The translations under genes and the position numbers were made by a program. Under the pieces are notes generated by a model. The model ran no database searches, had not been told where the DNA came from, and saw only the letters and a list, made by a program, of their open reading frames with translations. Source: Pseudomonadota bacterium (lineage in GTDB: Bacteria > Pseudomonadota > Gammaproteobacteria > Burkholderiales > SG8-39). From it: a stretch of 64,000 nucleotides of DNA. The stretch lies in NCBI GenBank assembly GCA_043805375.1, contig JAZDIA010000034.1, positions 9,916 to 73,915 on the forward strand, in the 5' to 3' direction. Of this stretch, positions 10,760-54,899 are shown piece by piece; the first letter of the stretch is position 1, and each line of letters starts with the position of its first letter.

Positions 10760-11122
10760 TCACGGCCGAGCGCATCGCCAGCGCAGCCAGACACGCAGCC
10801 GGCGCAATTCCTCCGCCGCGGCGCAGTCGGGCAATAGCACCAGGCGCCGGCCGCGCCCTCCGGGCGCACCCAGATTCACCACTACCAGCCAGTTCGATAC
10901 GTAATTGCCGGGCTGTATCTCGGCCTCGTTCCATTGCCCCGAGCCGTCTTGCCAGCGGGCATCGCTTTTCGCCCTCACTTCCAGCGCGCGCACGGCGCGC
11001 CGGCCCAGTTGCAGGGCCGGTGCAAGGTGCCAAATCCAGGCTAAAACTATGCCTGTCGCGGCCGGCAGGAAACCAAAGCGCGGCAGGCTGATCCAGGTAC
11101 AAGCAAGCGCCGCGCCAGCCAT
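10760..11122 (-). CDS. YgfX/CptA-like small inner-membrane protein (start uncertain)
   Basis: The ORF-track maximum (to 11296) overlaps the fabF 3' end. Two hydrophobic segments are followed by ...WQDGSGQW...LLPDCAAAEELRRLRVWLRW, which resembles the YgfX layout. No good start codon could be fixed. Confidence 0.35.
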   Translation of the reverse strand: MAGAALACTWISLPRFGFLPAATGIVLAWIWHLAPALQLGRRAVRALEVRAKSDARWQDGSGQWNEAEIQPGNYVSNWLVVVNLGAPGGRGRRLVLLPDCAAAEELRRLRVWLRWRCARP

Positions 11123-11181
11123 GAGCGTCAAAGCCAATGCAAGAACGCGGGAAGGTCTCAGCGTGACGGTGAGAGTCTGAC

Positions 11182-12420
11182 TCAAACCCGGCCGAATACC
11201 AGGGTGCCGTTGGTGCCGCCAAAACCGAAGGAATTCGACAGCGCCACGTTGATTTTCATCCGGCGCGCCGTATTCGGTACATAGTCCAGGTCGCATTGCG
11301 GATCCTGATTGAAGATATTGATCGTGGGCGGCGCCGTCTGCTCGGACACGGCAAGCGCCGAAAACACGGCTTCCACCCCCCCCGCGGCACCCAGCAGGTG
11401 CCCGGTCATGGACTTGGTCGAACTGAGCGCAACTCTTGTCGCGTGCGTGCCGAGGCTGCGCTTGACTGCAGTGGTCTCGGCGAGATCCCCCAAGGGGGTC
11501 GAGGTGCCATGGGCGTTGATGTAATCCACCTGGTCGGCGTTCAGGCGCGCGTTGCGGAGCGCGCTGTTCATGCAGCGTGCCGCGCCTTCGCCATCCTCGC
11601 GCGGAGCCGTCATGTGGAAGGCATCGCCGCTCATGCCGTAACCCGCAAGTTCGGCGTAAATTTTCGCGCCGCGTGCCCGGGCACGCTCGTACTCCTCCAG
11701 CACCAGCACGCCCGCGCCCTCTCCAAGCACAAAACCATCGCGGTCGCGGTCCCAGGGACGGCTGGCGCCGGCTGGGTCGTCGTTACGGGTCGAAAGCGCG
11801 CGCGCCTGGGCGAAGCCGCCCGTGGCAAGTTCGGTGACCACGGCCTCGGCGCCGCCAGCGACCATCACATCGCAATCGCCGTATTCGATCAGGCGTCCGG
11901 ATTCGCCGATGCAGTGCGTCGCCGTGGCGCACGCGGTCACCATGGCGAGATTCGGGCCTTTCAGGCCGTACTTGATCGACAGGTTCCCGGAAATCATGTT
12001 GATGATCGTGCTCGGGATGAAGAACGGCGAGATCTTGCGCGGCCCGCTCGCAAGCAACTCCCTTTGGGTTTGCTCGATCATCTGCAGACCGCCGATGCCC
12101 GAGCCGATGTTGACGCCGATGCGATCCGCGTTCTCCGGCGTAACCTGGATGCCGCAATCCCGCATCGCCTGAATGCCCGCCGCCATGCCGTAATGGATGA
12201 AGGTATCCATGTGGCGCGCTTCCTTGCGCTCCAGGTACTGGGTGAGGTCGAAATTTTTCACCTCCCCCGCGATCCGGCAGGCGAGCCGCGACGGGTCGAA
12301 ACGGCTGATTTTGGTGATGCCCGAATTGCCGGCGAGGATGTTAGCCCAGGCTTCGGTAACGCTGTTACCTACCGGGCAGATAATGCCCAACCCGGTTATC
12401 ACGACTCTGCGGCGGGACAA
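11182..12420 (-). CDS. fabF: 3-oxoacyl-ACP synthase II
   Basis: 412 aa with active-site Cys context VTACATATHCIG and the His motifs NAHGTSTP and MTGHLLGAAG. Confidence 0.92.
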   Translation of the reverse strand: MSRRRVVITGLGIICPVGNSVTEAWANILAGNSGITKISRFDPSRLACRIAGEVKNFDLTQYLERKEARHMDTFIHYGMAAGIQAMRDCGIQVTPENADRIGVNIGSGIGGLQMIEQTQRELLASGPRKISPFFIPSTIINMISGNLSIKYGLKGPNLAMVTACATATHCIGESGRLIEYGDCDVMVAGGAEAVVTELATGGFAQARALSTRNDDPAGASRPWDRDRDGFVLGEGAGVLVLEEYERARARGAKIYAELAGYGMSGDAFHMTAPREDGEGAARCMNSALRNARLNADQVDYINAHGTSTPLGDLAETTAVKRSLGTHATRVALSSTKSMTGHLLGAAGGVEAVFSALAVSEQTAPPTINIFNQDPQCDLDYVPNTARRMKINVALSNSFGFGGTNGTLVFGRV

Positions 12421-12456
12421 ATTTGCTCCGGAAAAAAGCGCGCTGGCCGCTGGAAG

Positions 12457-12699
12457 TCAGGCTTTCTTGGTGTGGCTTTTGACGTAGTCGATCGCCTGTT
12501 GGACGGTGGTGATTTTTTCGGCGTCTTCGTCGGGAATTTCGGTTTCGAATTCCTCCTCCAGGGCCATGACCAGCTCGACCGTATCTAGCGAGTCGGCGCC
12601 CAGGTCATCGATGAAGGAGGACTCGTTCTTTATTTCCGCTTCGTTTACGCCCAACTGCTCGGCGACGATTTTCTTCACCCTTTGATCGACATTTTCCAT
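12457..12699 (-). CDS. acpP: acyl carrier protein
   Basis: 80 aa with [19 protein letters not shown], which contains the phosphopantetheine-attachment Ser. An aaggag RBS lies upstream. Confidence 0.95.
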
Positions 12700-12784
12700 T
12701 TTCTACTCCTTCCTTCTTTTTTGGCTTCGGAAACAGCCCGGCATTTTAGCAAGATTAACTGCCGCGCGTTTGATAATTCCGTGC

Positions 12785-12856
12785 TCATGCCATGTACATG
12801 CCGCCATCAATATGCAGTGTGGCGCCGGTTACCAATGCGACTTGTCCTTGCAGCAT
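12785..12856 (-). pseudogene. fabG: fabG remnant: 23-codon in-frame fusion of the FabG N-terminus and C-terminus
   Basis: Minus-strand translation gives MLQGQVALVTGA|TLHIDGGMYMA*. This is the FabG start (compare E. coli MNFEGKIALVTGAS) joined directly to the FabG end (ITGETLHVNGGMYMV*). It sits exactly in the fabG slot, 2 nt after the fabD stop and about 85 nt before acpP. Confidence 0.7.
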
Positions 12857-12858
12857 GA

Positions 12859-13794
12859 TCACACCCCCTTCGATTGGCCTATGCCCTGCTCAATGCTGGC
12901 CTTGTCCAGCAGGGCAAGGGACTCCAGGCTGCCGTCATTGCGCTTGGTCATGCCCGCCAGCACTTTGCCCGGCCCACATTCGGCGACGTGGGTGATGCCC
13001 TGGGCTGCAAAAGCCTGGATGGTTTCCACCCAGCGCACCGGGTTGCAGGCCTGGCGCACCAGCGCATCCTTGATTCGCGCCGGATCGCCGTAACTTGCCA
13101 CGTCGACATTGTTGATCACCGGGACGCGCGGCGCGTTGAATGCGATGCCCCGCATGTATTGCTTCAGGCGTTCCGCGGCGGGCTGCATCAGCGCCGAATG
13201 AAAAGGCGCGCTCACCGGCAAGGGCAGCGCGCGCTTGGCGCCTTTGGCCTTGGCCGCGTCGCAGGCGCGCTTCACCGCCGCGGCATGGCCGGCGATGACT
13301 ACCTGGCCGGGCGAATTGAAGTTTACCGCCTGCACCACCTCGCCCTGCGCGGCCTCGGCGCAAGCGGCGCGCACCGCGTCTTCGTCCAGCCCCAGGATCG
13401 CGGCCATGGCGCCCTGCCCCTGCGGCACCGCTTCCTGCATCGCCCGGGCACGGAAGCGCACCAGCGGCAGCGCATCGCGAAACGGCAACACGCCCGCGGC
13501 CACCAGCGCGGTGTACTCGCCCAGGCTGTGTCCCGCAACCACCGCCGGCTCCGCGCCGCCCAGGCTGATCCAGGCGCGATAGGCTGCGTAACCGGCAATG
13601 AGCATGACCGGCTGCGTGTTGACCGTCATGTTGAGTTGCTCCGCCGGGCCTTCGGCCATCAGCTTGCCGAGGTCCTGGTCGAGCGCGTCAGAGGCCTCGG
13701 CGAGCACGTCGCGCACTGCGGCAATATCGCCGTAGGCCTGCATCATGCCCACCGACTGCGAACCCTGCCCGGGAAATACCATTGCGAGTTTCAT
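12859..13794 (-). CDS. fabD: malonyl-CoA:ACP transacylase
   Basis: 311 aa starting MVFPGQGSQ, with the active-site GHSLGEY. Confidence 0.9.
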
Positions 13795-13815
13795 CGATTC
13801 CAGTTCAATATCGGA

Positions 13816-14775
13816 TTACATTTGCACCAAGGTCGCGCCCCAGGTGAAACCGCCGCCCACGGCCTGCAGCATGACTCTGTGCCCGGGCATGATGCGGCCG
13901 TCGCGTATCGCCGCATCCAGCGCCAGCGGCACCGAGGCGGCCGACGTGTTGCCATGCGTATCCACGGTCACGATCAGCTTTTCCGGCGGCAGACCCAGCC
14001 GCTTCGCGGTCGACTCGAGGATGCGCAGATTGGCCTGGTGCGGAATCAGCCAATCGATGTCCTCAATCCGCAGGCCGCATTTTGACAGCGTTTCGCGCGC
14101 AACCTCATCAAGCACGCGCACTGCGAATTTGAACACCGCCGGGCCGTCCATGCGCAGGAACGGATCGCCGATTGCCTTGCCGCCGCAGACACTGCCGGGA
14201 ACGGACAGAATGCCGGCGTAGCTGCCGTCGGCGTGCAGGGCGCTCGCCATGATGCCGGGCTTGTCGTTCGCCCTCAGTATTACCGCCCCGGCACCGTCGC
14301 CGAACAGCACGCAGGTGCCGCGGTCGTTCCAGTCGAGGATGCGAGAAAACACTTCTGCGCCCACCACCAGGGCGCAGCGGTGCTGACCCGAGCGGATGAA
14401 CAGGTCGGCCGTGACCAGTGCATAGACGAAGCCGCTGCATACTGCCTGCACATCGAAGGCCGGGCCGCCCTTGATGCCGAGTTTGGCCTGCAGCAGGCAC
14501 GCGGTGCTGGGAAAGATGTAGTCCGGGGTCGAGGTGGCAAGGATGATTAGGTCGATTTCCTGCGCGGCGATGCCGGCGCTGGCAATGGCGGCTCTGCTCG
14601 CCTCCAGCGCAAGACTGCTCGAGGTTTCCCCCGCTTCCGCGATATGCCGCTGGCGGATGCCGGTGCGCGAGCGTATCCACTCGTCGGAGGTATCCATGCG
14701 CCGCGCCAGGTCGCCGTTGGTAACGACATTGCGCGGCAAATAGCCGCCGCTGCCGATGATTCTGGAATAGATCAC
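13816..14775 (-). CDS. fabH: 3-oxoacyl-ACP synthase III
   Basis: 319 aa with active-site Cys context [10 protein letters not shown], plus HQANLRI and GGGFTWG. Confidence 0.9.
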
Positions 14776-15797
14776 GCCGCTTCCACAGTGTTATGGCCTG
14801 CTGCCGCCAGGCGTTGGGAAATGCGCTGCAGCACACCCTCGCGCACTTCATCGAACGCGCGCTCGATCGCGTTCTGGAACGCTAAACTGTCGGCCGAGCC
14901 GTGGCTTTTCACCACGATGCCTTTCAGGCCGAGCAGGCTGGCGCCGTTGTAGCGCCCCGGGTCCACCCGGCGCTTGAACGCGGCGAGCACGGGCACAGCC
15001 ATGATGCCGCAGAGATATGTGAACCAGTTGCGCTTGAATTCATCGGTGAGGAAAGAGCGCAGCATCTTGGCCAGGCCTTCGGCGCTCTTGAGCGCGACAT
15101 TGCCGACGAAACCGTCGCACACCACCACGTCGGTAGTCCCTTTGAAGATATCGTCGCCTTCGACGTTGCCGTAAAAATTGAGGCCGCTCGCGCGCAGCAG
15201 CTCCGCCGCCTGCTTCACCACCTCGTTGCCTTTGATTTCCTCTTCGCCGATGTTGAGCAGTCCGATGCTGGGGCGTTCCTTGTGCTGCATGGCCGACACC
15301 AGCGTGGCACCCATGATGGCGAACTGCAACAAATGTTCCGCTGTGCAATTGACGTTTGCGCCCAAGTCGAGCACGTAAACCTCGCCTTTCATGGTGGGCA
15401 ATATGCCGGCAATTGCGGGACGGTCGATTCCGGGCAGCGTCTTGAGAACGAAGCGCGAAATCGCCATTAGCGCGCCGGTGTTGCCGGCGCTGACGCAGGC
15501 GTGCGCGGTGCCGTTCTTGACCAGATTGACGGCGACGCGCATGGACGAGTCCTTTTTTCCGCGCAGTGCCGAGGCTGGTGCCTCGTCCATGCCAACTTCT
15601 TGGCTCGCATTGTGCACCAGCAAATGCGGGCCGGGCTCAGCATGGCGCGTACGCAACTCGGCCTCGATCGCGTCCCGCAGACCGACCAGAACGATGTTGC
15701 TGCGCGGATGCACATTCTGGAAACTGAGGGCAGCGGGAACGGTAACGCTGGGGCCGTGATCGCCCCCCATGCAATCGATGGCTACCGTGGTCTCCAT
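14772..15797 (-). CDS. plsX: phosphate acyltransferase PlsX
   Basis: 341 aa with [11 protein letters not shown] near the N-terminus. rpmF-plsX-fabH synteny. Confidence 0.9.
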
Positions 15798-16654: not shown

Positions 16655-16791
16655 AAGGGGCGCATGATATTATTTTTACCCTCTACTGTCAAAGGAAAAA
16701 CAAAATTTTCAACACCTTGCCGAAGGTTTACGTGGTGTGGGCGCTGATCATTTCAGCGACCGCGCAAATCCGTGGTTAAATCCGGTTCCAT

Positions 16792-45808: not shown

Positions 45809-45884
45809 TCCCCGATAGCTCAGCCGGTAGAGCGACGGACTGTTAATCCGCAGGTCCGAGGTTCGAACCCTCGTCGGGGAGCCA
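45809..45884 (+). tRNA. tRNA-Asn (anticodon GUU)
   Basis: Hand-folded 76-nt cloverleaf. Acceptor tccccga/tcgggga, D arm gctc-agccggta-gagc, anticodon loop ctGTTaa, T arm cgagg-ttcgaac-cctcg, and an encoded CCA. Confidence 0.93.
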
Positions 45885-45888
45885 ATAT

Positions 45889-45922
45889 CAGAGCCAATCT
45901 CCAAAGGATTGGCTCTTTTTTG
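45889..45922 (+). terminator. Rho-independent terminator after tRNA-Asn
   Basis: Stem agagccaatc/gattggctct with a 7-8 nt loop, followed by tttttt. Confidence 0.6.
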
Positions 45923-46267
45923 TTCAGCCATGTATCCACTGTGTATCCGCTCGGAATCAGCCAACAAAAAGCCCGCCGAAGCGGGCTCTTGATCCTGCTA
46001 CCGCCGGCGCGGTCAGTGCAGCGAAACCTCGGGGTGGTTCGCTTTGCGCTCGTGCAGTTCGTGCTCGCGCAGTACCTGCTCGCGGGTCGGACCGGCTCCC
46101 TCGTTGATTTCCCGCTCGGTCGCTTGCTTGTAGAGCGCCGGTTCAGTTGGGTAACCCAGCTCAGTCCTGCTGCAATGGTCGCTCAGGGCCGAACAGAATC
46201 CGGCAACGCATTCGTCACCATGCGCGGCGCCCCGCTTGCCTGAGACCGTCAGGCGGCGGTTAAGCCC

Positions 46268-46573
46268 TTATGCAGCTTCAAGCCGCTCGATGCGTTCATA
46301 TCCTCCGCGCTGCTCAAGCGTCCAGACATCGACGGCCTGCTGCATGCGTAGCCATATCTCCGGACCATTGCCCAGCAGCTTGCCCAAGCGGATCGCCATG
46401 TCCGCGGTCACGCTGCGCTTTTCAAGCAGCACCTCCGAAACCGTCAGGCGCGAAACCCCAAGGCGGTCGGCAAATTCCTTTTGCGTCAGCCCCAGCGCCG
46501 GCAGCACGTCCTCGCGCAAGATTTCGCCCGGGTGCGTTGGGCGTCGGTTCGGGTTTCTCAAGGTCTTAGCCAT
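46268..46573 (-). CDS. higA: HigA-family antitoxin (XRE-type HTH)
   Basis: 101 aa with HPGEILREDVLPALGLTQKEFADRLGVSRLTVSEVL, a HigA/VapI-type HTH. It overlaps the toxin stop by 1 nt. Confidence 0.8.
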   Translation of the reverse strand: MAKTLRNPNRRPTHPGEILREDVLPALGLTQKEFADRLGVSRLTVSEVLLEKRSVTADMAIRLGKLLGNGPEIWLRMQQAVDVWTLEQRGGYERIERLEAA

Positions 46574-46851
46574 CAGTGATAGTCCTCCAGGTTAAGGTCG
46601 GTCGCGTTCTCACCAACAAAGCGGAACGCGATGCGCCAGTTTCCCGATACAGTCATCGCCCATTCTCCCTTCCGGTCGAATTTCAGCGGGTGCAGGTGCA
46701 TGCCGGCAATATCCAACTGCTCCACAGTGGTTGCCTCTTCGATCAGGTCAAGTATGCGGCGAATGCGCGGCCCGTGCTTGGCATTGATCGCGCGAGCGTC
46801 ATCGTTCTTGAAGAATCGTTCGATGCCCTTGTGTCGGAAATTCTTAATCAT
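46573..46851 (-). CDS. higB: HigB-like RelE/ParE-superfamily toxin
   Basis: 92 aa (MIKNFRHKGIERFF...WRIAFRF...DLNLEDYH), the 'plasmid maintenance system killer' pattern. The toxin lies upstream of the antitoxin, as in higBA. Confidence 0.8.
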   Translation of the reverse strand: MIKNFRHKGIERFFKNDDARAINAKHGPRIRRILDLIEEATTVEQLDIAGMHLHPLKFDRKGEWAMTVSGNWRIAFRFVGENATDLNLEDYH

Positions 46852-46860
46852 GGAAGTAGT

Positions 46861-46899
46861 GTAATCGTATTAAATACGTTATGCAATAGCTTAGATTAC
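46861..46899. promoter_or_regulatory. nested palindromes upstream of higB (candidate operator)
   Basis: cgtatt-a-aatacg (46866-46878) is nested within gtaatc...gattac (46861-46866 and 46894-46899), 10-50 nt upstream of the higB start. Confidence 0.3.
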
Positions 46900-47180
46900 A
46901 TTTTCTCAAGCTGTTACCGCAGGTAAGCCCTCGGATGCGGAGCGGGGAAAACGCGCTAGAACGGTCTGCAAGGCGTTTGCCGCCGTGCCGGCGCCAGAGT
47001 ACCAGCCGTGGACGACTGCGCAGCGGGACAGCCGCAGGCGCAACGCTGAGGGCCGCTGCGTCGAGGTCGCCATAGCCGAGTTCAGCACGCTGTCGAGCCG
47101 GGCGATTGCGGAGATGTGCGGGGTCGGGCACCAATTCGTCAGCATGGTTCGGTTGTCGGCGCGCGCCAACACTGATCGCC

Positions 47181-47206
47181 CCATAACGCGCAGGCTGGTC
47201 AATCTG
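47181..47206 (+). repeat. 26-bp direct repeat, copy A
   Basis: ccataacgcgcaggctggtcaatctg matches 25 of 26 positions in copy B, 1900 bp downstream. Confidence 0.9.
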
Positions 47207-47280
47207 ATTTCTCTAAGCTTGCGCCGACCGCGTCCAAGCCCGACTGCAACAAGTCACTGCGCCTGGATTAGGAGAACCCG

Positions 47281-47907
47281 CTACTGTTTAGGACGAAACC
47301 CCTGCGAAGGACCGGGCGTTGGACGTTGCCCCACTCCTGGGCGCGCCGCCCCTTGAGGCTGTCGCGGAGTAACAACTGCACTCTGTGGCGGTCTCGGATT
47401 AACACCCGCACTCGGTGGTCGTTGGACGGGACGGTCAGCCGGCATTGGACGCTGCTCTCCTCCTGGACGTGGCCCGAGTTGTGGCTGTCGCGGATTAATG
47501 GTTGCGCGCGGTGGCAGGTGACTCCATTGCGGCATCTGCCTGTACCAGGGCCGGCCGATGTAGTGATCCTGCCAGTAACTACCGCTGATGAAAGTGACAA
47601 CGCCAATACCGATCGCGGCACCGTAGTTAATCACGGGAACATTCGCCCCTTGGTAGGAATAGGCGATGTTACGTGCATACACCCAGCCCCTGTTTGGCCC
47701 CGCAATAACATCACACCAGCTGTAATCTTGCAGACACCCCTGAACATCCACGGTAAACCCACCTCCTAGGATCGCCACCACGGGATAGTCTCTGGCGGGT
47801 CCGGCGCGCAGGTGGGCAGTCTTGGCGGTATAAGCCACCTGTGCACTTGCTGCAACCGGAAGGGCGAGCGTTGCCGCGGCAAGAACCAGCACTTTCAGAT
47901 AGTTCAT
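47281..47907 (-). CDS. secreted SH3b-domain protein with a Pro/Gln-rich tail
   Basis: 208 aa with a signal peptide (ALPVAASAQ) and an SH3b-like LRAGPARDYPVVAILGGGFTVDVQGCLQDYSWCDV..GWV. The C-terminal repeats are NPRQPQ, NPRPPQ and TPRQPQ. Confidence 0.65.
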   Translation of the reverse strand: MNYLKVLVLAAATLALPVAASAQVAYTAKTAHLRAGPARDYPVVAILGGGFTVDVQGCLQDYSWCDVIAGPNRGWVYARNIAYSYQGANVPVINYGAAIGIGVVTFISGSYWQDHYIGRPWYRQMPQWSHLPPRATINPRQPQLGPRPGGEQRPMPADRPVQRPPSAGVNPRPPQSAVVTPRQPQGAARPGVGQRPTPGPSQGFRPKQ

Positions 47908-48340
47908 ATTTCACCCCCTTTTCTGTTCTATTACTGCCATGAGATAGCGATAAATACGACGCCATGAAACTTGGATCTCGAAGAATATTGCTAGGCGCGG
48001 GCGACATTCCACCATCTTCGTTAGCGCCTCACATTCCACCAGGGATACCACTTTCATGATTTATCGCTACAGTCGCTCCACAGGAGTTCAGGCTAGCAAG
48101 TTCGCGCGACGATAGTGGTAAGCAATTGTTTCAATCTGTAAGCGGCGGCTTGTGTCGGCCAGGTCCGTTGCTATCCAGCGTAGCGGGCGAGGCGCATAGC
48201 TCCACAGGGACCCCCCCACCCCTTGCGTAGGACGCCACGGCGGGTCCGTCCTGTCGATTTATGCTACCGTGGTGCCGTATCCGTAGGCTCCCGTGTTACC
48301 GCAACGGGGGGTGTACGGCCAAGTGCGGAAAGCACAACGT

Positions 48341-48889
48341 ATGAATACAAACATAATCATTGAGATCTTCCTGGCGTTTGTGGTGTCGTTTGCCGGTAGG
48401 GGTCTTTGGCAAGTGCTGAAGCGCAACGGCTTCGTTGTAAGCGTAATGCGCGATGAATCAATCCTATCCAATCTAATTTCCCGCAGCAGGTTGAACAGTG
48501 CGTCACCAGTCATTACTGTCTGGGCACAAAAACTTCCAAGCGGAAATTCCGGATACTTCGGATACCCCGTAAATATCCAAGTTTTGATTGCTGCGGACAA
48601 GGGGGCGGAGCGCAAGATGAAAATAATGTCGGGATTCGTGCTGTTGGGAGTAGTACTCGGAAGCTACCTCTTGGGCACAGTGTATCTTGCCATTAACGTG
48701 ATCATCATTTTCCTTTCCGCGATACCGGGCATCTCCGCGCCGACCCGTGACAACGCTTTAATCTATGTTATGCAACTGGCTGTCATCCTCGACAAGTGGC
48801 GTGCAGAAAATGCAACCGAGTGCGAGCAGTGGATCGACCAAGCGTGGAGCCTTCGCCCACTTTATAACGCGGTAAAGACCGCTCGATGA
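48341..48889 (+). CDS. hypothetical membrane protein
   Basis: Start at MNTNIIIEIFLAFVVSF. There are about three hydrophobic helices and no recognisable family. Confidence 0.4.
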   Translation: MNTNIIIEIFLAFVVSFAGRGLWQVLKRNGFVVSVMRDESILSNLISRSRLNSASPVITVWAQKLPSGNSGYFGYPVNIQVLIAADKGAERKMKIMSGFVLLGVVLGSYLLGTVYLAINVIIIFLSAIPGISAPTRDNALIYVMQLAVILDKWRAENATECEQWIDQAWSLRPLYNAVKTAR

Positions 48890-49055
48890 CTTGTAGCCGA
48901 TGCGAACCGCCTGTGAGCACCACGCCAACTCAATCGCCTCTAGTGCCCCGCCGCACAGTACATTGTGGTCCGTTGCTGCGCGGTCAGCATTGACCGTCGT
49001 GCGCGACTTGCGCTGACCACCCCTCACCCACCCAATTCCTTGGCTGGATGAGCGT

Positions 49056-49829
49056 TTGGTGAGGCTTCACCCCGATTACGCCATAACGCGCAGGCCGGTC
49101 AATCTGCTCCGCGCCAACAACAGAATTTGGGTCATAATGACAGAAGATCGATTTAAGGGAGCCTGGATCAAGATGCTTACGACCGATATTGGCAAGCGCA
49201 TCGAGCTGGTGTCGATGGATTCCCATTGCCTTGATATCTCGATTGCACTTTATCTGCAGGACCACGGTCAAGGGCCGGAGTTTCTCGTTCATACCTACAG
49301 CCGTCACCTGGAAGCGATACAGCGGGTCGATTTCATCTGCCGGGGAATGATCATCCTAGGAGGAATGGAATTCGTCCAGAATGGGTCGGGCCGGGTTCGA
49401 TTTTCCTGCCATGGAGATCATCTGAAGGCTTGCGCAAGGGTCTTTCTTGAAGTTTGCAAGTTGCCGAATGGAAGTCCGTTGGCGCCAAAAGAGTTGCTGA
49501 TCTTTGATAAGAAATCGAACCGGAATATCCGCGTGATCTCGGGTCCGGGAAGCGTCCGCCAGTTGACGGCGGATGGCCCGGACAATGAGGAGAAAACCCT
49601 CCGCATGTCTGCTGTGGCTCAGGGATTGACCAAACTTGCCGAATTGCAAGTGGGTGGACAAGGCACGAATCAGCTTTCCTTTTCCTGCGGCCAGACTCAC
49701 GATCGATTGATTGGTCTTTTGCTCGCGAGGTCCTTGAACGTCAGGGCCGTGCTGCGGGAGCAGGAGTTGGCGGCAGGGAGAGGCATTCTTTCTGCGCCCA
49801 GCGCCCGGAATGAGTCGATGAATCTCTAG
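49056..49829 (+). CDS. hypothetical protein immediately upstream of the corrinoid methyltransferase genes
   Basis: 257-aa ORF with a GTG start at 49056 preceded by ggatgag. An alternative ATG at 49137 gives MTEDRFKGAW. No recognisable motif. Composition matches the downstream lower-GC cassette. Confidence 0.45.
   Translation: MVRLHPDYAITRRPVNLLRANNRIWVIMTEDRFKGAWIKMLTTDIGKRIELVSMDSHCLDISIALYLQDHGQGPEFLVHTYSRHLEAIQRVDFICRGMIILGGMEFVQNGSGRVRFSCHGDHLKACARVFLEVCKLPNGSPLAPKELLIFDKKSNRNIRVISGPGSVRQLTADGPDNEEKTLRMSAVAQGLTKLAELQVGGQGTNQLSFSCGQTHDRLIGLLLARSLNVRAVLREQELAAGRGILSAPSARNESMNL
49081..49106 (+). repeat. 26-bp direct repeat, copy B
   Basis: ccataacgcgcaggccggtcaatctg lies inside the 5' end of ORF 49056-49829. 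Confidence 0.9.
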
Positions 49830-49873
49830 GTCAGCGCGTATCCCCTGTTGACAAACGGGTGAAGGAGTATGTG

Positions 49874-50947
49874 ATGCATAGCTTGAGTCAGATCATTCCT
49901 CCCATGACCGGGCGGCAGCGCGTTTTGGCGGCTTTGCGCCGGGAGCCCGTGGATCAAACGCCCGTTTGCAATCCAACCTCGGTTGCCACCGTGGAGCTGA
50001 TGGACCTGGTGGACGCCCCATTTCCGGATGCTAATCGCGTCCCGGAAAAAATGGCCCGTCTGGCCGCAACCGGGCACACCGAGTTGGGGTTCGATAGTGT
50101 GATGCCGGTCTTCAGCGTTATCCAGGAGTCTTCCGCTTTGGGCTGCAAGATTCAGTGGGAACAGAAAGACAATTGGCCTACCGTAAAAATGCGCGAACCG
50201 ATCTGGGAGGATGTCGGCGATATCCGGATTTCTCCGAATCTTCTGGATCATCCCGACATGCAGTGCGTCGTTCAGGCGATCAAGATCCTCAGAAGAGAGT
50301 TGGGCAATGAGGTCGCCATCATCGGAAAGACAATGGGGCCCTGGTCACTGGCTTATCATTGTTTTGGCGTGGAGCCTTTCCTGCTGTTGTCTTCAGATGA
50401 CCCCGGCAAGACCAAAGCTGTCCTCGACAAGCTCAAGGAAATCACGGTCCTGTTCGGTTTAGCCCAGATTGAGGCGGGAGCAGATGCTTTGACGTTACCC
50501 GATCATGCCACGGGTGATTTGGTCAGCGGCGAATACTACGCCAGGTACTTGCGTGATCTTCACAGGGAATTTGCCGAGCGACTGCCTGCCCCGATTATTC
50601 TTCATATTTGCGGCAAGACCACGGATCGCATGGAATACATCGCGCAGACAGGAATGGCCGCTTTTCATTTCGACTCGAAAAACGATCCGGGTGAATCCAT
50701 GAACATCGTGCAAAAGCGCATTTCCCTGGTAGGGAATATCAATAACCCGGAGACGCTTTTCTCGAAAGGTCCTGAAGAGGTTCGTCTGGAAGTCTATAAG
50801 AATTTGGAGGCCGGGGTGCAACTGGTCGGACCCGAATGCGCTATACCGCTTCAGACAGCCATTGAGAATTTGAAGGAAATTCCCAAGGCGGTGCGCGACT
50901 GGCATCGGGCGCAGCGCACCAAGGTGGCAGCAGGAACCACTGCCTGA
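49874..50947 (+). CDS. URO-D/MtaA-family, Zn-type corrinoid methyltransferase
   Basis: aaggag RBS followed by ATG 49874. About 357 aa. The H-x-C...C zinc-ligand pattern of MtaA/MtbA-type enzymes is present (ILHICGKT ... VGPECAIP). Length and layout fit the uroporphyrinogen-decarboxylase fold. Confidence 0.8.
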   Translation: MHSLSQIIPPMTGRQRVLAALRREPVDQTPVCNPTSVATVELMDLVDAPFPDANRVPEKMARLAATGHTELGFDSVMPVFSVIQESSALGCKIQWEQKDNWPTVKMREPIWEDVGDIRISPNLLDHPDMQCVVQAIKILRRELGNEVAIIGKTMGPWSLAYHCFGVEPFLLLSSDDPGKTKAVLDKLKEITVLFGLAQIEAGADALTLPDHATGDLVSGEYYARYLRDLHREFAERLPAPIILHICGKTTDRMEYIAQTGMAAFHFDSKNDPGESMNIVQKRISLVGNINNPETLFSKGPEEVRLEVYKNLEAGVQLVGPECAIPLQTAIENLKEIPKAVRDWHRAQRTKVAAGTTA

Positions 50948-51066
50948 ATCCGGAACCGGCTGTATGGCGGGCCCCTCTTGTGGCCGGCCATCCGCCGGAC
51001 GGCGGCCGGGGCGTCAGCCACCTTGGCTGCAACTCCTGCCTACATTCCATTTTTGATGAGGTCAGC

Positions 51067-51831
51067 ATGGTAGAAGTCAAGGATATTCAAAATGAGTTCA
51101 TTCGAACGGAAATTGAAGAGTTTATTGAACGGCCCGAGGAACGTGCGCGCATCATCCAAGTGTTTTCCAAGGCGCATCCGGATCTCCAGGCCATTGCGGC
51201 AGCCCTGATCGAAGGGGAGAACAAGCTCGTTGACCAGTTGACCCGCCGAGCCCTGGATACGGGTTTTGAGGCGTTGGATGTCATGGACAACGGATTGATT
51301 GCCGGGATGGCAATCGTGGCGATCAAATTCCGGCAGTCCTTCATTTATGTTCCAGAGGTTTTGACCTGCGCTCGCGCTATGAGAGCTGGGATGTGTCACA
51401 TTGAGCCGATCCTTTCGGCCTCGGGCATTAAACCCGTGGGTACGGTGATCATGGGAACGGTCAAGGGTGACCTTCATGACATTGGGAAGAACCTTTGCAT
51501 CATGATGTTACGAGGAACGGGTTTTATCGTCCATGACCTGGGGGTAGACACATCGTCGGACCGTTTCATCGAGGCCGTCGAAGAACACCATGCGCCTCTC
51601 CTGGGGATGTCGGCTCTGTTGACGACAACCATGCCCAACATGGGCAAAACGATCGAAGCCTTCATCGATGCAGGACTTCGGGATAAGATCAAAATCATGG
51701 TGGGAGGAACTCCAGTCACTCAGGAATTTGCCGATGACATGGGTGCCGATGGCTACGGCAAGGATGCCATGGCATGCGTGTCGTTGGCGAAACAGTTGCT
51801 TGGCGTGGAGGCCGGTGTGAGGAATCCGTAA
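51067..51831 (+). CDS. corrinoid (cobalamin-binding) protein
   Basis: Start at MVEVKDIQ. An N-terminal helical cap region is followed by a Rossmann domain with the full DxHxxG / SxL / GG cobalamin-binding motif set (GDLHDIGKN, MSALLTTT, MVGGTPV). Confidence 0.9.
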   Translation: MVEVKDIQNEFIRTEIEEFIERPEERARIIQVFSKAHPDLQAIAAALIEGENKLVDQLTRRALDTGFEALDVMDNGLIAGMAIVAIKFRQSFIYVPEVLTCARAMRAGMCHIEPILSASGIKPVGTVIMGTVKGDLHDIGKNLCIMMLRGTGFIVHDLGVDTSSDRFIEAVEEHHAPLLGMSALLTTTMPNMGKTIEAFIDAGLRDKIKIMVGGTPVTQEFADDMGADGYGKDAMACVSLAKQLLGVEAGVRNP

Positions 51832-51833
51832 AA

Positions 51834-52073
51834 ATGCAAAAAATCGATCCGGAGCAATATCAAAAACGTCTTGACCACATTACGGAATTATTTACCAGTA
51901 TGGTTGTTCACGCCGATGAACTCTCGAAAAGCCGCTGCCCCTATAAGAACCGCCTCAATCAGTGCACCGCACACGTTGGATGCCGGAACAAGACGAAACC
52001 TGCGGAAACGGGCAGCCCGCCAATCTGTGCCGGGGATGACAAGTTAGACTACCGCGGCGCCTGGGAAACATAG
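51834..52073 (+). CDS. 79-aa four-cysteine protein of unknown function
   Basis: The ATG lies 2 nt after the corrinoid-protein stop. Sequence MQKIDPEQYQKRLDHITELF...SRCPYKNRLNQCTAHVGCRNKTKPAETGSPPICAGDD, with spacing C-x8-C-x5-C-x16-C. Confidence 0.5.
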   Translation: MQKIDPEQYQKRLDHITELFTSMVVHADELSKSRCPYKNRLNQCTAHVGCRNKTKPAETGSPPICAGDDKLDYRGAWET

Positions 52074-52134
52074 CTGGAAATCAGGGAACTAAAAGTGGGC
52101 GGGCGATGCGTCTCTTTTCCCTGCTGCTTCTGAG

Positions 52135-53784
52135 ATGGCGACCATATCCTGCGAAGGAAACTCATGCGGTGGACGTCACGGGGCGTCCCTGTTTGAGTGC
52201 GCTGACGCATTGACGATCCAGTTGCCGAGCTCTTGCGGGCGCAAGGGAACCTGCCATGAGTGTATCGTTGAAGTTGTAGAAGGCCTGAACGCCCTGAATT
52301 CGCCCACTCAGGCGGAATTCTTCCTGCGCGATCAATGCAGACTCGCTTGTCAGGCCAGGATCGAGAATCCCAAGATTGACATCCGCTTTGCGCCCTTTCG
52401 GCGGTACTCCAAAATCCTGACCGCCAATCAGGAGAGATCCCTCCAACTGGACCCCCAGGTGACACGCCGCGGAGATGAAGTCTATTACGGTCAGGAACCG
52501 ATTGACCGCTATCGCGGCCACCTCTATGGGGTCGCCGTGGATCTGGGCACCACAACTGTGGTGTGTGACCTGGTCGATCTGGAAACGGGTTCGTCCCTCT
52601 GCCTGAGTTCTTTTGACAACCCGCAGCGGTTTGGCGGAAGCGACATAATGAACCGGATATCCTACGACGGAGGCCCATTTCACGGTGAATTGCACAAGGC
52701 CATCATCCATGCTCTAAACCATGAGATTCGAGAAATCTGCCAGAAGATGGGCGTTAACCGGGAAGAGATCTACGAAATCGTGGTTGCCGGAAATTCCACG
52801 ATGAGAGACCTGTTTTTTGACATCGACGTTCAGAGCATCGGGCGGAAGCCTTACAAATCAGTGATTGAATTGGAAATGCTTGCCGGAAAGCGTCATGGGA
52901 CGGTCTTGGTTGAAAAAGCGACCAAACTTGGCATCCAGATTCATTCCAAGGCCAGGATTTATGGCATGCCATTGATTGCCAGCCATGTTGGAGCCGACAC
53001 GGTGGCAGACTTGATCGCGATGGACATGGACTCTCAACAGGATGTTGTCATGGTGGTGGATGTTGGAACCAATACAGAGGTCGTCGTTGGATATGCCGGC
53101 AGGATGTTGATTGCTTCCTGTCCGGCAGGACCCGCCTTTGAAGGAGGTGCCGTCAAATACGGGATGCCTGGTTGTGATGGCGCCATTGAGAGTTTGTCCC
53201 GGAAGGATGGAGAATTTGACTACCGGACCATTGGAGGAGCCGCCCCCCGGGGAATTTGCGGTTCCGGTCTCATTGATCTGTTGGCTGAATTGCGCCGCCA
53301 TGGACTCATGACGTCGAAAGGAGTTTTCGCGGACAAGAAATATATCTTGGATATCGTGCCAAAATATGGCATCACCTTCTCTCGGGAGGATGCCAGTTAT
53401 CTTGCCCAGGCCAAAGCAGCTAACTATTGCGGTCAGTATATCCTGATGCGGGAATTTGGGGTTAGCCCGACAGATATCCAAACACTCTATCTGGCGGGAG
53501 GATTCGCTAATTACATTGATGTGGCCAACGCAATTGAGATCGGTTTTCTGGCGCCTGTAGCGCAAGAGCGCATCGTGAAGATCGGGAATGCCTCGGTCCA
53601 AGGAGCCCGGGAGATTTTGCTCTCAAAAAGCAGGCGTGATTCAATCCAGGAATTATTCAAACATATCGCTCACATTGAGTTGGAAACCACACCTGATTTC
53701 TTTGAGCTTTTTGTCGAGGGATGTCAATTTAAGCCGATGCCGAACGAAATCGTTTCATTGGCGGCCCCCGGAATGGAAGGATAG
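52135..53784 (+). CDS. RACo-type ATP-dependent reductive activase of corrinoid proteins (2Fe-2S ferredoxin + ASKHA/DUF4445)
   Basis: 549 aa. The N-terminal C-x5-C-x2-C...C pattern is SSCGRKGTCHEC ... RLACQA. The ASKHA phosphate-1 motif is GVAVDLGTTTVVCDLV, with later VDVGTNTEVV. Confidence 0.85.
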   Translation: MATISCEGNSCGGRHGASLFECADALTIQLPSSCGRKGTCHECIVEVVEGLNALNSPTQAEFFLRDQCRLACQARIENPKIDIRFAPFRRYSKILTANQERSLQLDPQVTRRGDEVYYGQEPIDRYRGHLYGVAVDLGTTTVVCDLVDLETGSSLCLSSFDNPQRFGGSDIMNRISYDGGPFHGELHKAIIHALNHEIREICQKMGVNREEIYEIVVAGNSTMRDLFFDIDVQSIGRKPYKSVIELEMLAGKRHGTVLVEKATKLGIQIHSKARIYGMPLIASHVGADTVADLIAMDMDSQQDVVMVVDVGTNTEVVVGYAGRMLIASCPAGPAFEGGAVKYGMPGCDGAIESLSRKDGEFDYRTIGGAAPRGICGSGLIDLLAELRRHGLMTSKGVFADKKYILDIVPKYGITFSREDASYLAQAKAANYCGQYILMREFGVSPTDIQTLYLAGGFANYIDVANAIEIGFLAPVAQERIVKIGNASVQGAREILLSKSRRDSIQELFKHIAHIELETTPDFFELFVEGCQFKPMPNEIVSLAAPGMEG

Positions 53785-53843
53785 ATCCTATTGCCGGCAT
53801 CGATCCGTGGAGACGTGAATACCATAAGAACGGGAAGGACAAA

Positions 53844-54899
53844 ATGGAGATTAAAGCTCTGAGAAAGAACTTTATTGTTGTCGGTGAGAATATCCACGCA
53901 ACGAGGGTACTCCTTCGCGGAGGGCAGTCTGTCACCACAACCGAAGGAGGGCAGGAAGCCGTCCGCTTCCAAGGGGTTGACGGGGAAACGCGCTATCTCC
54001 CCATTCCGGAAGAATACAAGAATACACAGGAATACCGGGACGGGCGAGTCAAACACATCAAGATTGCAATTCAGGCAGCAATGTCGGGACGTGAGTCCGA
54101 AGCCCAGCCAGGTCTGGAGTATTTGCAGCAGAAGGTTCGACAACAGCTCGATGCGGGAGCCGATTTCATTGATCTGAACGTCGATGAGGTTTCTTTACGT
54201 CCCGAAGACCAGAAGGCGGCTATGTCATGGCTGGTCCAGACGGTACGGCCAATATGTTCGGTTCCACTCTCTATTGATTCTTCCAATACCGAGACCATTC
54301 GTGCGGGATTAGAAGCCGGCAAGGGACACAACGGCAGACCCCTGCTCAATTCAGCTTCACTGGAACGAAAGTCGGCGCTGGAACTCGTTGTTGAATATCG
54401 GGCACAAGTGGTTGTGACGGCTGCCGGAGAAAGCGGCATGCCTGAGGACGATGTCGAACGGGTCGCCAACGCTTCGCGAATCGTGGAACTGGCTCTTGAA
54501 AAAGGCATTCCGCTTCACGATCTCTACATTGATGCCCTGGTGTTTCCGATATCGGTCGACAGTGATTACGGCAACCACTATTTCGAAGCGGTTCGCAAGC
54601 TTCGCGAAAAGTTCGGTCCCGAAATCCATATTACCGGCGGGCTCAGTAATGTGTCCTTTGGCCTTCCGATGCGCCGACTGGTGAACAACGTGTTCCTGAT
54701 TCTGGCGACCGAAGCGGGGGCCGACAGCGGCATCATCGATCCCGCTGCCGGTAGAGTAGATCAAGTGCTTGCAATGGACCGTCAGTCCCGGAGCTACCAG
54801 GTGGCGGCGGACTTATTGCTTGGCCGTGACATCGGCTGTCGCGACTTCCTGCGTGCCTTTCGGAGTAAAGAGCTTCAGACAGGTGTTGGAGCCAGCTAA
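53844..54899 (+). CDS. pterin-binding methyltetrahydrofolate:corrinoid methyltransferase (MetH/AcsE-like domain)
   Basis: 351 aa with motifs in the usual Pterin_bind order: VGENIHATR, ADFIDLNVD, PLSIDSS, LLNSASLE, YIDALVFP and TGGLSNVSFGLP. A ggaagga RBS lies upstream. Confidence 0.85.
   Translation: MEIKALRKNFIVVGENIHATRVLLRGGQSVTTTEGGQEAVRFQGVDGETRYLPIPEEYKNTQEYRDGRVKHIKIAIQAAMSGRESEAQPGLEYLQQKVRQQLDAGADFIDLNVDEVSLRPEDQKAAMSWLVQTVRPICSVPLSIDSSNTETIRAGLEAGKGHNGRPLLNSASLERKSALELVVEYRAQVVVTAAGESGMPEDDVERVANASRIVELALEKGIPLHDLYIDALVFPISVDSDYGNHYFEAVRKLREKFGPEIHITGGLSNVSFGLPMRRLVNNVFLILATEAGADSGIIDPAAGRVDQVLAMDRQSRSYQVAADLLLGRDIGCRDFLRAFRSKELQTGVGAS

Follow-up and report, generated by a model that had tools for sequence, protein, structure and literature searches.

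An in-frame deletion at a short direct repeat leaves a 23-codon fabG relic in an otherwise intact fab cluster of an uncultured Burkholderiales lineage

Main

The 3-oxoacyl-ACP reductase FabG, a classical SDR, is essential in Escherichia coli, Pseudomonas aeruginosa and Ralstonia solanacearum (PMC4618531, PMC6558427). The closest described cases of redundancy at this step are R. solanacearum, a member of the Burkholderiales whose second active FabG provides a precedent (FabG1/FabG2; PMC4618531), and P. aeruginosa, with PA4389 and PA4786 (PMC6558427). Extra active 3-oxoacyl-ACP reductases of this kind might substitute for the operon enzyme in proteobacteria, yet in both species they do not make operon fabG dispensable (PMC4618531, PMC6558427). 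The loss of DNA between short direct repeats is, for its part, an established RecA-independent process (PMC5426353, PMC7145654).

In this study, we describe a locus of an uncultured Burkholderiales lineage at which these two subjects meet. It lies in a 64-kb stretch of DNA, hereafter ‘the window’, which denotes the whole of the sequence analysed, and its fab cluster retains fabG as a 23-codon relic only. Whereas the operon copy is present and essential alongside the isozymes of R. solanacearum and P. aeruginosa, it is destroyed in the window, and a substitute is not found there.

Results

The window is a continuous contig with zero Ns and 60% G+C, and its minus strand carries the order plsX–fabH–fabD–(72-nt ORF)–acpP–fabF. 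The genes on either side of the short ORF are intact: plsX (14772–15797), fabH (13816–14775), fabD (12859–13794), acpP (12457–12699) and fabF (11182–12420), all on the minus strand, encode products that exceed NCBIfam equivalog or subfamily cut-offs (TIGR00182, 370 bits versus 243; TIGR00747, 419 versus 292; TIGR00128, 348 versus 261; NF002149, 152 versus 106; and TIGR03150, 666 versus 494, respectively), without alteration at any site that is invariant among relatives (0/79, 0/85, 0/73, 0/35 and 0/122). The ORF itself (12785–12856, minus strand), located from the ORF list and by alignment to relatives’ DNA, comprises 23 codons and a TGA stop and encodes MLQGQVALVTGATLHIDGGMYMA. An initial annotation, made from the letters alone, had described a canonical fab order with 159 nt between fabD and acpP, a relic start codon 2 nt after the fabD stop and a retained fabG–acpP spacer with its ribosome-binding site (RBS). 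Minus-strand reading and the ORF list agree with this layout, with 159 nt (12700–12858) from the fabD stop (TGA, 12861–12859) to the acpP ATG and the relic ATG at 12856–12854, while relatives’ DNA aligns through the whole 85-nt spacer.

The surrounding gene context, rpoE–rseAB–degP ... fabF–acpP–fabD–fabH–plsX–rpmF–yceD, is the canonical chromosomal one and collinear with that of all relatives. About 40 other genes of the window match Pfam profiles end to end at full length, which together with the absence of Ns rules out poor assembly or widespread pseudogenization. A CptA-family (PF07254) membrane-protein gene lies between rpoE and fabF (10760–11296, minus strand) and is kept at the same position in the relatives L100–L102 (relatives’ loci are referred to by L numbers), with a called product length that varies from 120 to 178 amino acids. 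The fabH–fabD spacer of L100, L102 and L103, the closest relatives by FabD, contains an approximately 95-nt purine-rich insertion that is missing from the window (13795–13815) and from L009, L002 and L013; what had been suspected to be a third deletion is really this insertion in a subset of relatives.

Alignment to relatives establishes what remains of fabG. The relic joins the N-terminal 12–13 residues of FabG to its last 10–11 residues: it halts at T-G-A-T and resumes at L-H-I-D-G-G-M-Y-M-A, and residues ~14–236 of the 246-amino-acid protein of relatives are missing. Because relatives’ DNA aligns unbroken into both halves of the stub and on into the spacer, and because a tblastn search of the 64-kb window with a relative’s FabG matches there only, the ORF is a fabG remnant and not a chance reading frame. 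By position it is the FabG orthologue, flanked by fabD and acpP and matching the two ends of relatives’ fabG in collinear DNA, and it shares with FabG the orthologous end codons, the start context and the spacer. As a protein, lacking 223 of 246 residues, it falls outside the family, scoring 16.8 bits against a cut-off of 332 for NF004197 and 12.8 bits against 297.75 for TIGR01830, where the intact FabG of relative L085 reaches 398.7 and 324.5 bits. It holds one Rossmann-fold strand and half of the TGxxxGxG loop; the Ser-Tyr-Lys triad is gone, and the stub thus falls short of a classical SDR, which combines the full loop and the Ser-Tyr-Lys(-Asn) set in a Rossmann fold of ~250 amino acids. With almost the whole fold and the catalytic triad lost, the predicted product cannot be a reductase, and the ORF reads as a pseudogene scar rather than an enzyme.

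The initial annotation had seen an N-terminal FabG fragment fused to the C-terminal end, about 220 codons lost, and a junction in a shared T-G-A motif that made microhomology-mediated deletion plausible; comparison with relatives substantiates each of these points and sharpens the last. Relatives have 741 nt where the window has 72 nt, so that exactly 669 nt, equivalent to 223 codons, are missing. BLAST alignment of window positions 7–19 kb to nine relatives is collinear throughout, except for the break in fabG and a variable maf–yceD spacer. In eight of the nine, two high-scoring segments overlap on the window at exactly 12819–12829 while the relative skips 669 nt; in the ninth (L003) the second segment begins further in. 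The 11-nt overlap, ACCGGCGCCAC on the minus strand, spans the codons T-G-A-T. Across 31 inventoried relatives, a repeat of the form ACC GGC GCx ACx occurs twice in fabG, once near each end, with an identical codon phase and a distance of 669 nt: codons 10–13 read ACC GGC GCC ACG (LV-T-G-A-T-RGIG), and the downstream copy reads ACC GGC GCG/GCC ACG/ACA (YI-T-G-A-T-LHVNGG). The longest exact run of the repeat varies from 2 to 13 nt among these relatives: it measures 8 nt in 16, falls below that in most of the rest and extends to a perfect 13-nt repeat, ACCGGCGCCACGC, in L095 and L098. The window has GCC, the N-terminal type, followed by ACA, a C-terminal type found in L008, which places the crossover inside the repeat.

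Breakpoints within a direct repeat of which a single copy is kept, with the undeleted state read from relatives of this species, are the probable signature of slippage or template switching. The locus resembles spontaneous short-direct-repeat deletions (PMC5426353, PMC7145654) in that one 8–13-nt GC-rich repeat copy is retained and the 669 nt between the copies are lost. It differs from them in that the repeat is built by two conserved SDR motifs in phase and the deletion is automatically in frame, since its two copies are translated in one phase into the same four residues, and in that the event strikes a gene regarded as essential. This in-frame outcome also bears on whether the 23-codon ORF could be a selected micro-protein or leader peptide, or an engineered markerless deletion. 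The frame, start, RBS and stop are all intact, and the design is like that of laboratory in-frame deletions. The same-phase repeats yield such an ORF in any case, however; the ORF is unique to the window, so that no conservation backs a function, and the junction falls in natural microhomology with no cloning scar, in a lineage known only from MAGs. We therefore reject both variants as extremely improbable.

A more serious competitor is a technical or sampling artefact, in which the organism has an intact fabG and either template switching in vitro at the 11–13-nt GC-rich repeat, by PCR or by MDA of low-input or single-cell DNA, or the assembly of a rare defective molecule produced the observed sequence. 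MDA chimeras prime on 2–21 nt of complementarity (PMC1855051), a range that includes the window junction. In contrast to it, such chimeras are mostly inversions (>85%) rather than same-strand deletions (PMC1855051), come without extra substitutions at conserved codons and rarely dominate a consensus. Of the three causes that the initial annotation had offered, a paralogue elsewhere, an assembly collapse or a minority allele, collapse at the level of k-mers is unlikely, since assemblers usually work with k-mers longer than the exact repeat, which does not exceed 13 nt; a minority path would normally be expected to break the contig instead of crossing 64 kb.

Comparison with relatives counts towards an artefact. 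The 80 loci retrieved by a GTDB-wide scan with the window FabD belong without exception to MAGs of uncultured Burkholderiales or Betaproteobacteria and reach at most 93% protein identity. The fabD–acpP distance is 750–990 nt in 74 of the 74 GTDB loci that hold both genes, compared with ~160 nt in the window, and in the close clade a gene for a 246-amino-acid FabG invariably occupies the interval. The best FabD match among 5.8 billion proteins is 94% identical, and its four contigs all carry FabG at this length. A scan of metagenome contigs with an N-terminal pattern identified 19 that match the 5′ end of fabG, all of them 246-amino-acid genes except two that run off the contig, and FabG is kept throughout the 120 protein clusters that best matched in a database survey. 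Sequence internal to fabG, for example AACATCACTTCGGTGGT, is conserved in the clade. A degenerate DNA pattern for the deletion junction found 0 matches in metagenome contigs, and the deletion allele is unique to the window among the sequences compared.

The comparison of sister loci that the initial annotation had proposed thus returns a 246-amino-acid FabG at this position in every comparable relative, none of which is conspecific. Look-ups for proteins identical to the window FabD, ACP or PlsX gave no match, and the nearest FabD in any collection searched, at 94% identity, is the closest approach to a conspecific sequence. The lineage, of the soil/groundwater type of uncultured betaproteobacterium, is known from MAGs and metagenome contigs only. 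These observations weigh against a real loss, as do the other fab genes, whose full conservation indicates that the FASII pathway is in use, as would be expected were it complete. An essential gene that is present in all ~100 relatives’ loci and in 120 protein clusters, a junction allele that did not recur in metagenome contigs, and relatives that are all MAGs or metagenome contigs, which makes a similar source probable here and leaves room for a defective or minority allele to have been assembled, are together what an artefact would predict. Set against the length of the repeat, the orientation of the junction and the continuity of the contig, we nonetheless regard an artefact as possible but rather unlikely.

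The DNA between the relic and acpP retains its features. The 85-nt spacer (12700–12784, minus strand), aligned with 45 relatives, contains the acpP RBS GGAAGGAG (12706–12713) and an extended −10-like element, TGCTAAAAT (12743–12751), on the same strand. In relatives the element reads TGGTAAAAT (TGnTAAAAT) and, by alignment only, is at least 95% conserved among the 45; the window form is alone in having C instead of G at the ‘n’ position. A strict scan of 12300–13300 for sigma-70 promoters and terminators found no promoter and no minus-strand terminator, and the conserved element is a putative acpP promoter of a form that the strict hexamer search would miss.

The relic also departs from relatives in sequence. 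At 12806–12811 (minus strand), 9–14 nt from the deletion junction, ATTGAT (Ile-Asp) replaces GTCAAC (Val-Asn), so that the stub reads H-I-D-G-G where relatives read HVNGG. Val-Asn is present in 58 of 58 full-length FabGs from the compared loci, which share 66–100% identity with the FabG of L085, the closest relative. The 120 database clusters were gathered with a chimeric ‘reconstructed’ FabG ending in HIDGG, a query made to find orthologues with that motif, and even so they have Asn in 120/120 and Val in 119/120, with Ile in one and Asp in none; for both sets combined, Asn is found in 178/178 orthologues and Val in 177/178. In the flanking FabF, ACP, FabD, FabH, PlsX and L32, the window departs from relatives at 1 of 420 invariant positions. 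In the stub, 9 of 23 positions are invariant in relatives by a count from residue tallies, and two of the nine are changed (Fisher p = 0.0012 if the changes are two events, 0.04 if the adjacent codons represent one).

Three of the 72 nucleotides of the relic (4.2%) are unique to the window, all within 12806–12811 and none elsewhere in the relic. The flanking genes show window-unique rates of 3.6% at fourfold sites and 1.1% at codon positions 1 and 2, and the stub has a rate that neutral drift over the full length of the lineage-specific branch could produce. The substitutions hint that the stub evolved free of FabG constraint, a signal limited to two adjacent codons and perhaps to one mutational event. 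With four of its six bases differing from every close relative, the hexamer looks like the result of a single multi-nucleotide event: DNA synthesis close to the junction might have been error-prone, or an SDR paralogue might have supplied a conversion patch. Neither the window nor any of the 103 loci searched contains a donor of CTGCATATTGATGGCGGC. The motif V/I-D-G-G occurs in functional SDRs generally.

Substitution at otherwise invariant sites tilts the balance towards a deletion that is real and not brand new, as an event in vitro would leave the change from Val-Asn to Ile-Asp unexplained unless the intact fabG of the species already has Ile-Asp. Were an intact conspecific fabG to read HVNGG, release from constraint would have preceded, or caused, the divergence of the relic; were it to read HIDGG, the argument from relaxed constraint would fall. 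If, alternatively, a genomic SDR were to carry ...GCCACACTGCATATTGATGGCGG..., the patch would be a gene-conversion tract that marks the likely substitute reductase.

A diverged scar in an essential gene would also be reconciled by redundancy, if the genome had another intact fabG, or a duplicate of the fab segment, at a different site and the window held the decaying copy. This amounts to a special case of a real deletion complemented from outside the window, with an orthologous copy in place of a distinct paralogue. The window has the canonical chromosomal context, collinear with all relatives, and no duplicated cluster appears in the relatives’ loci that were compared, which leaves a redundant copy improbable.

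A second eroded gene lies nearby. The maf–yceD spacer (16655–16791) retains only a 20-codon stub, MPKVYVVWALIISATAQIRG (ORF 16717–16779, plus strand), of a DUF4124 gene of ~140 amino acids that is intact in L013, L004 and L084 (Pfam PF13511, E = 5 × 10−14) and partly deleted in L009, and no gene is called in the ~240-nt gap of L101 and L103. To judge from these states, the DUF4124 gene is probably eroding naturally by stepwise deletions in this subclade, which we count in favour of a real deletion in fabG.

Elsewhere in the window, a tRNA (45809–45881) lies 5′ of a HigB-like toxin/HTH antitoxin pair (46268–46851), which is followed, within 45809–54899, by a block of lower third-position GC. 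The block holds a corrinoid-dependent methyl-transfer cassette comprising a URO-D-like methyltransferase (49859–50947), a B12-binding protein (50980–51831), a RACo reductive activator (52135–53784) and a pterin-binding methyltransferase (53844–54899). The region could have arrived by horizontal transfer as an island that serves methyl-group or O-demethylation metabolism.

Discussion

The reading we favour, at a probability of roughly 55%, is that the window records a genuine, non-recent deletion allele carried by viable cells, with ketoacyl-ACP reductase activity supplied from outside the window. From the junction, the substitutions and the state of the neighbouring genes we infer how and when the deletion arose, that its carriers were viable and that they were complemented in trans. 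The chromosomal fabG of this lineage would have lost 669 bp (codons about 13–235) by a RecA-independent process (slippage, template switching or single-strand annealing) at two short direct repeats that lie in register, ACC-GGC-GCx-ACx, and correspond to the SDR motifs LVTGAT and ITGAT. The shared codon phase of the repeats would by itself give a 23-codon in-frame stub. The start of the stub remains coupled to fabD, and its stop codon, the spacer and the signals of acpP survive, so that expression of acpP and fabF should be unaffected.

Because the other FASII genes of the cluster are intact and conserved and the scar has diverged at residues invariant in FabG, the deletion appears to have persisted in viable cells, and such persistence would in turn require 3-oxoacyl-ACP reductase activity from a gene outside the 64-kb window, within which the tblastn search recovered no SDR paralogue and hence no candidate for complementation in trans. 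Either a paralogue of FabG or a different SDR might be the substitute. Deletions between short direct repeats are a well-known type of scar, and it is the target gene that makes the case mildly surprising.

If the junction were instead an artefact, it would serve as a warning that a contig of otherwise high quality can harbour a clean in-frame deletion at 11–13 nt of microhomology, which would lead automated pathway reconstruction to call FASII incomplete. Should the deletion be real, the organism could be a free-living betaproteobacterium permanently without operon fabG, in which a ketoreductase encoded elsewhere, either non-orthologous or paralogous, serves type II fatty-acid synthesis and lipid A synthesis, a proposal that we advance tentatively and with somewhat less confidence than that of the deletion itself. 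If true, it would represent a natural displacement of FabG, an antibacterial target described as the only known enzyme for its step (PMC4618531, PMC8007833). A viable natural lineage without operon fabG would imply a replacement reductase that merits identification and would also show that two conserved SDR motifs constitute a built-in hotspot for in-frame deletion in GC-rich fabG genes.
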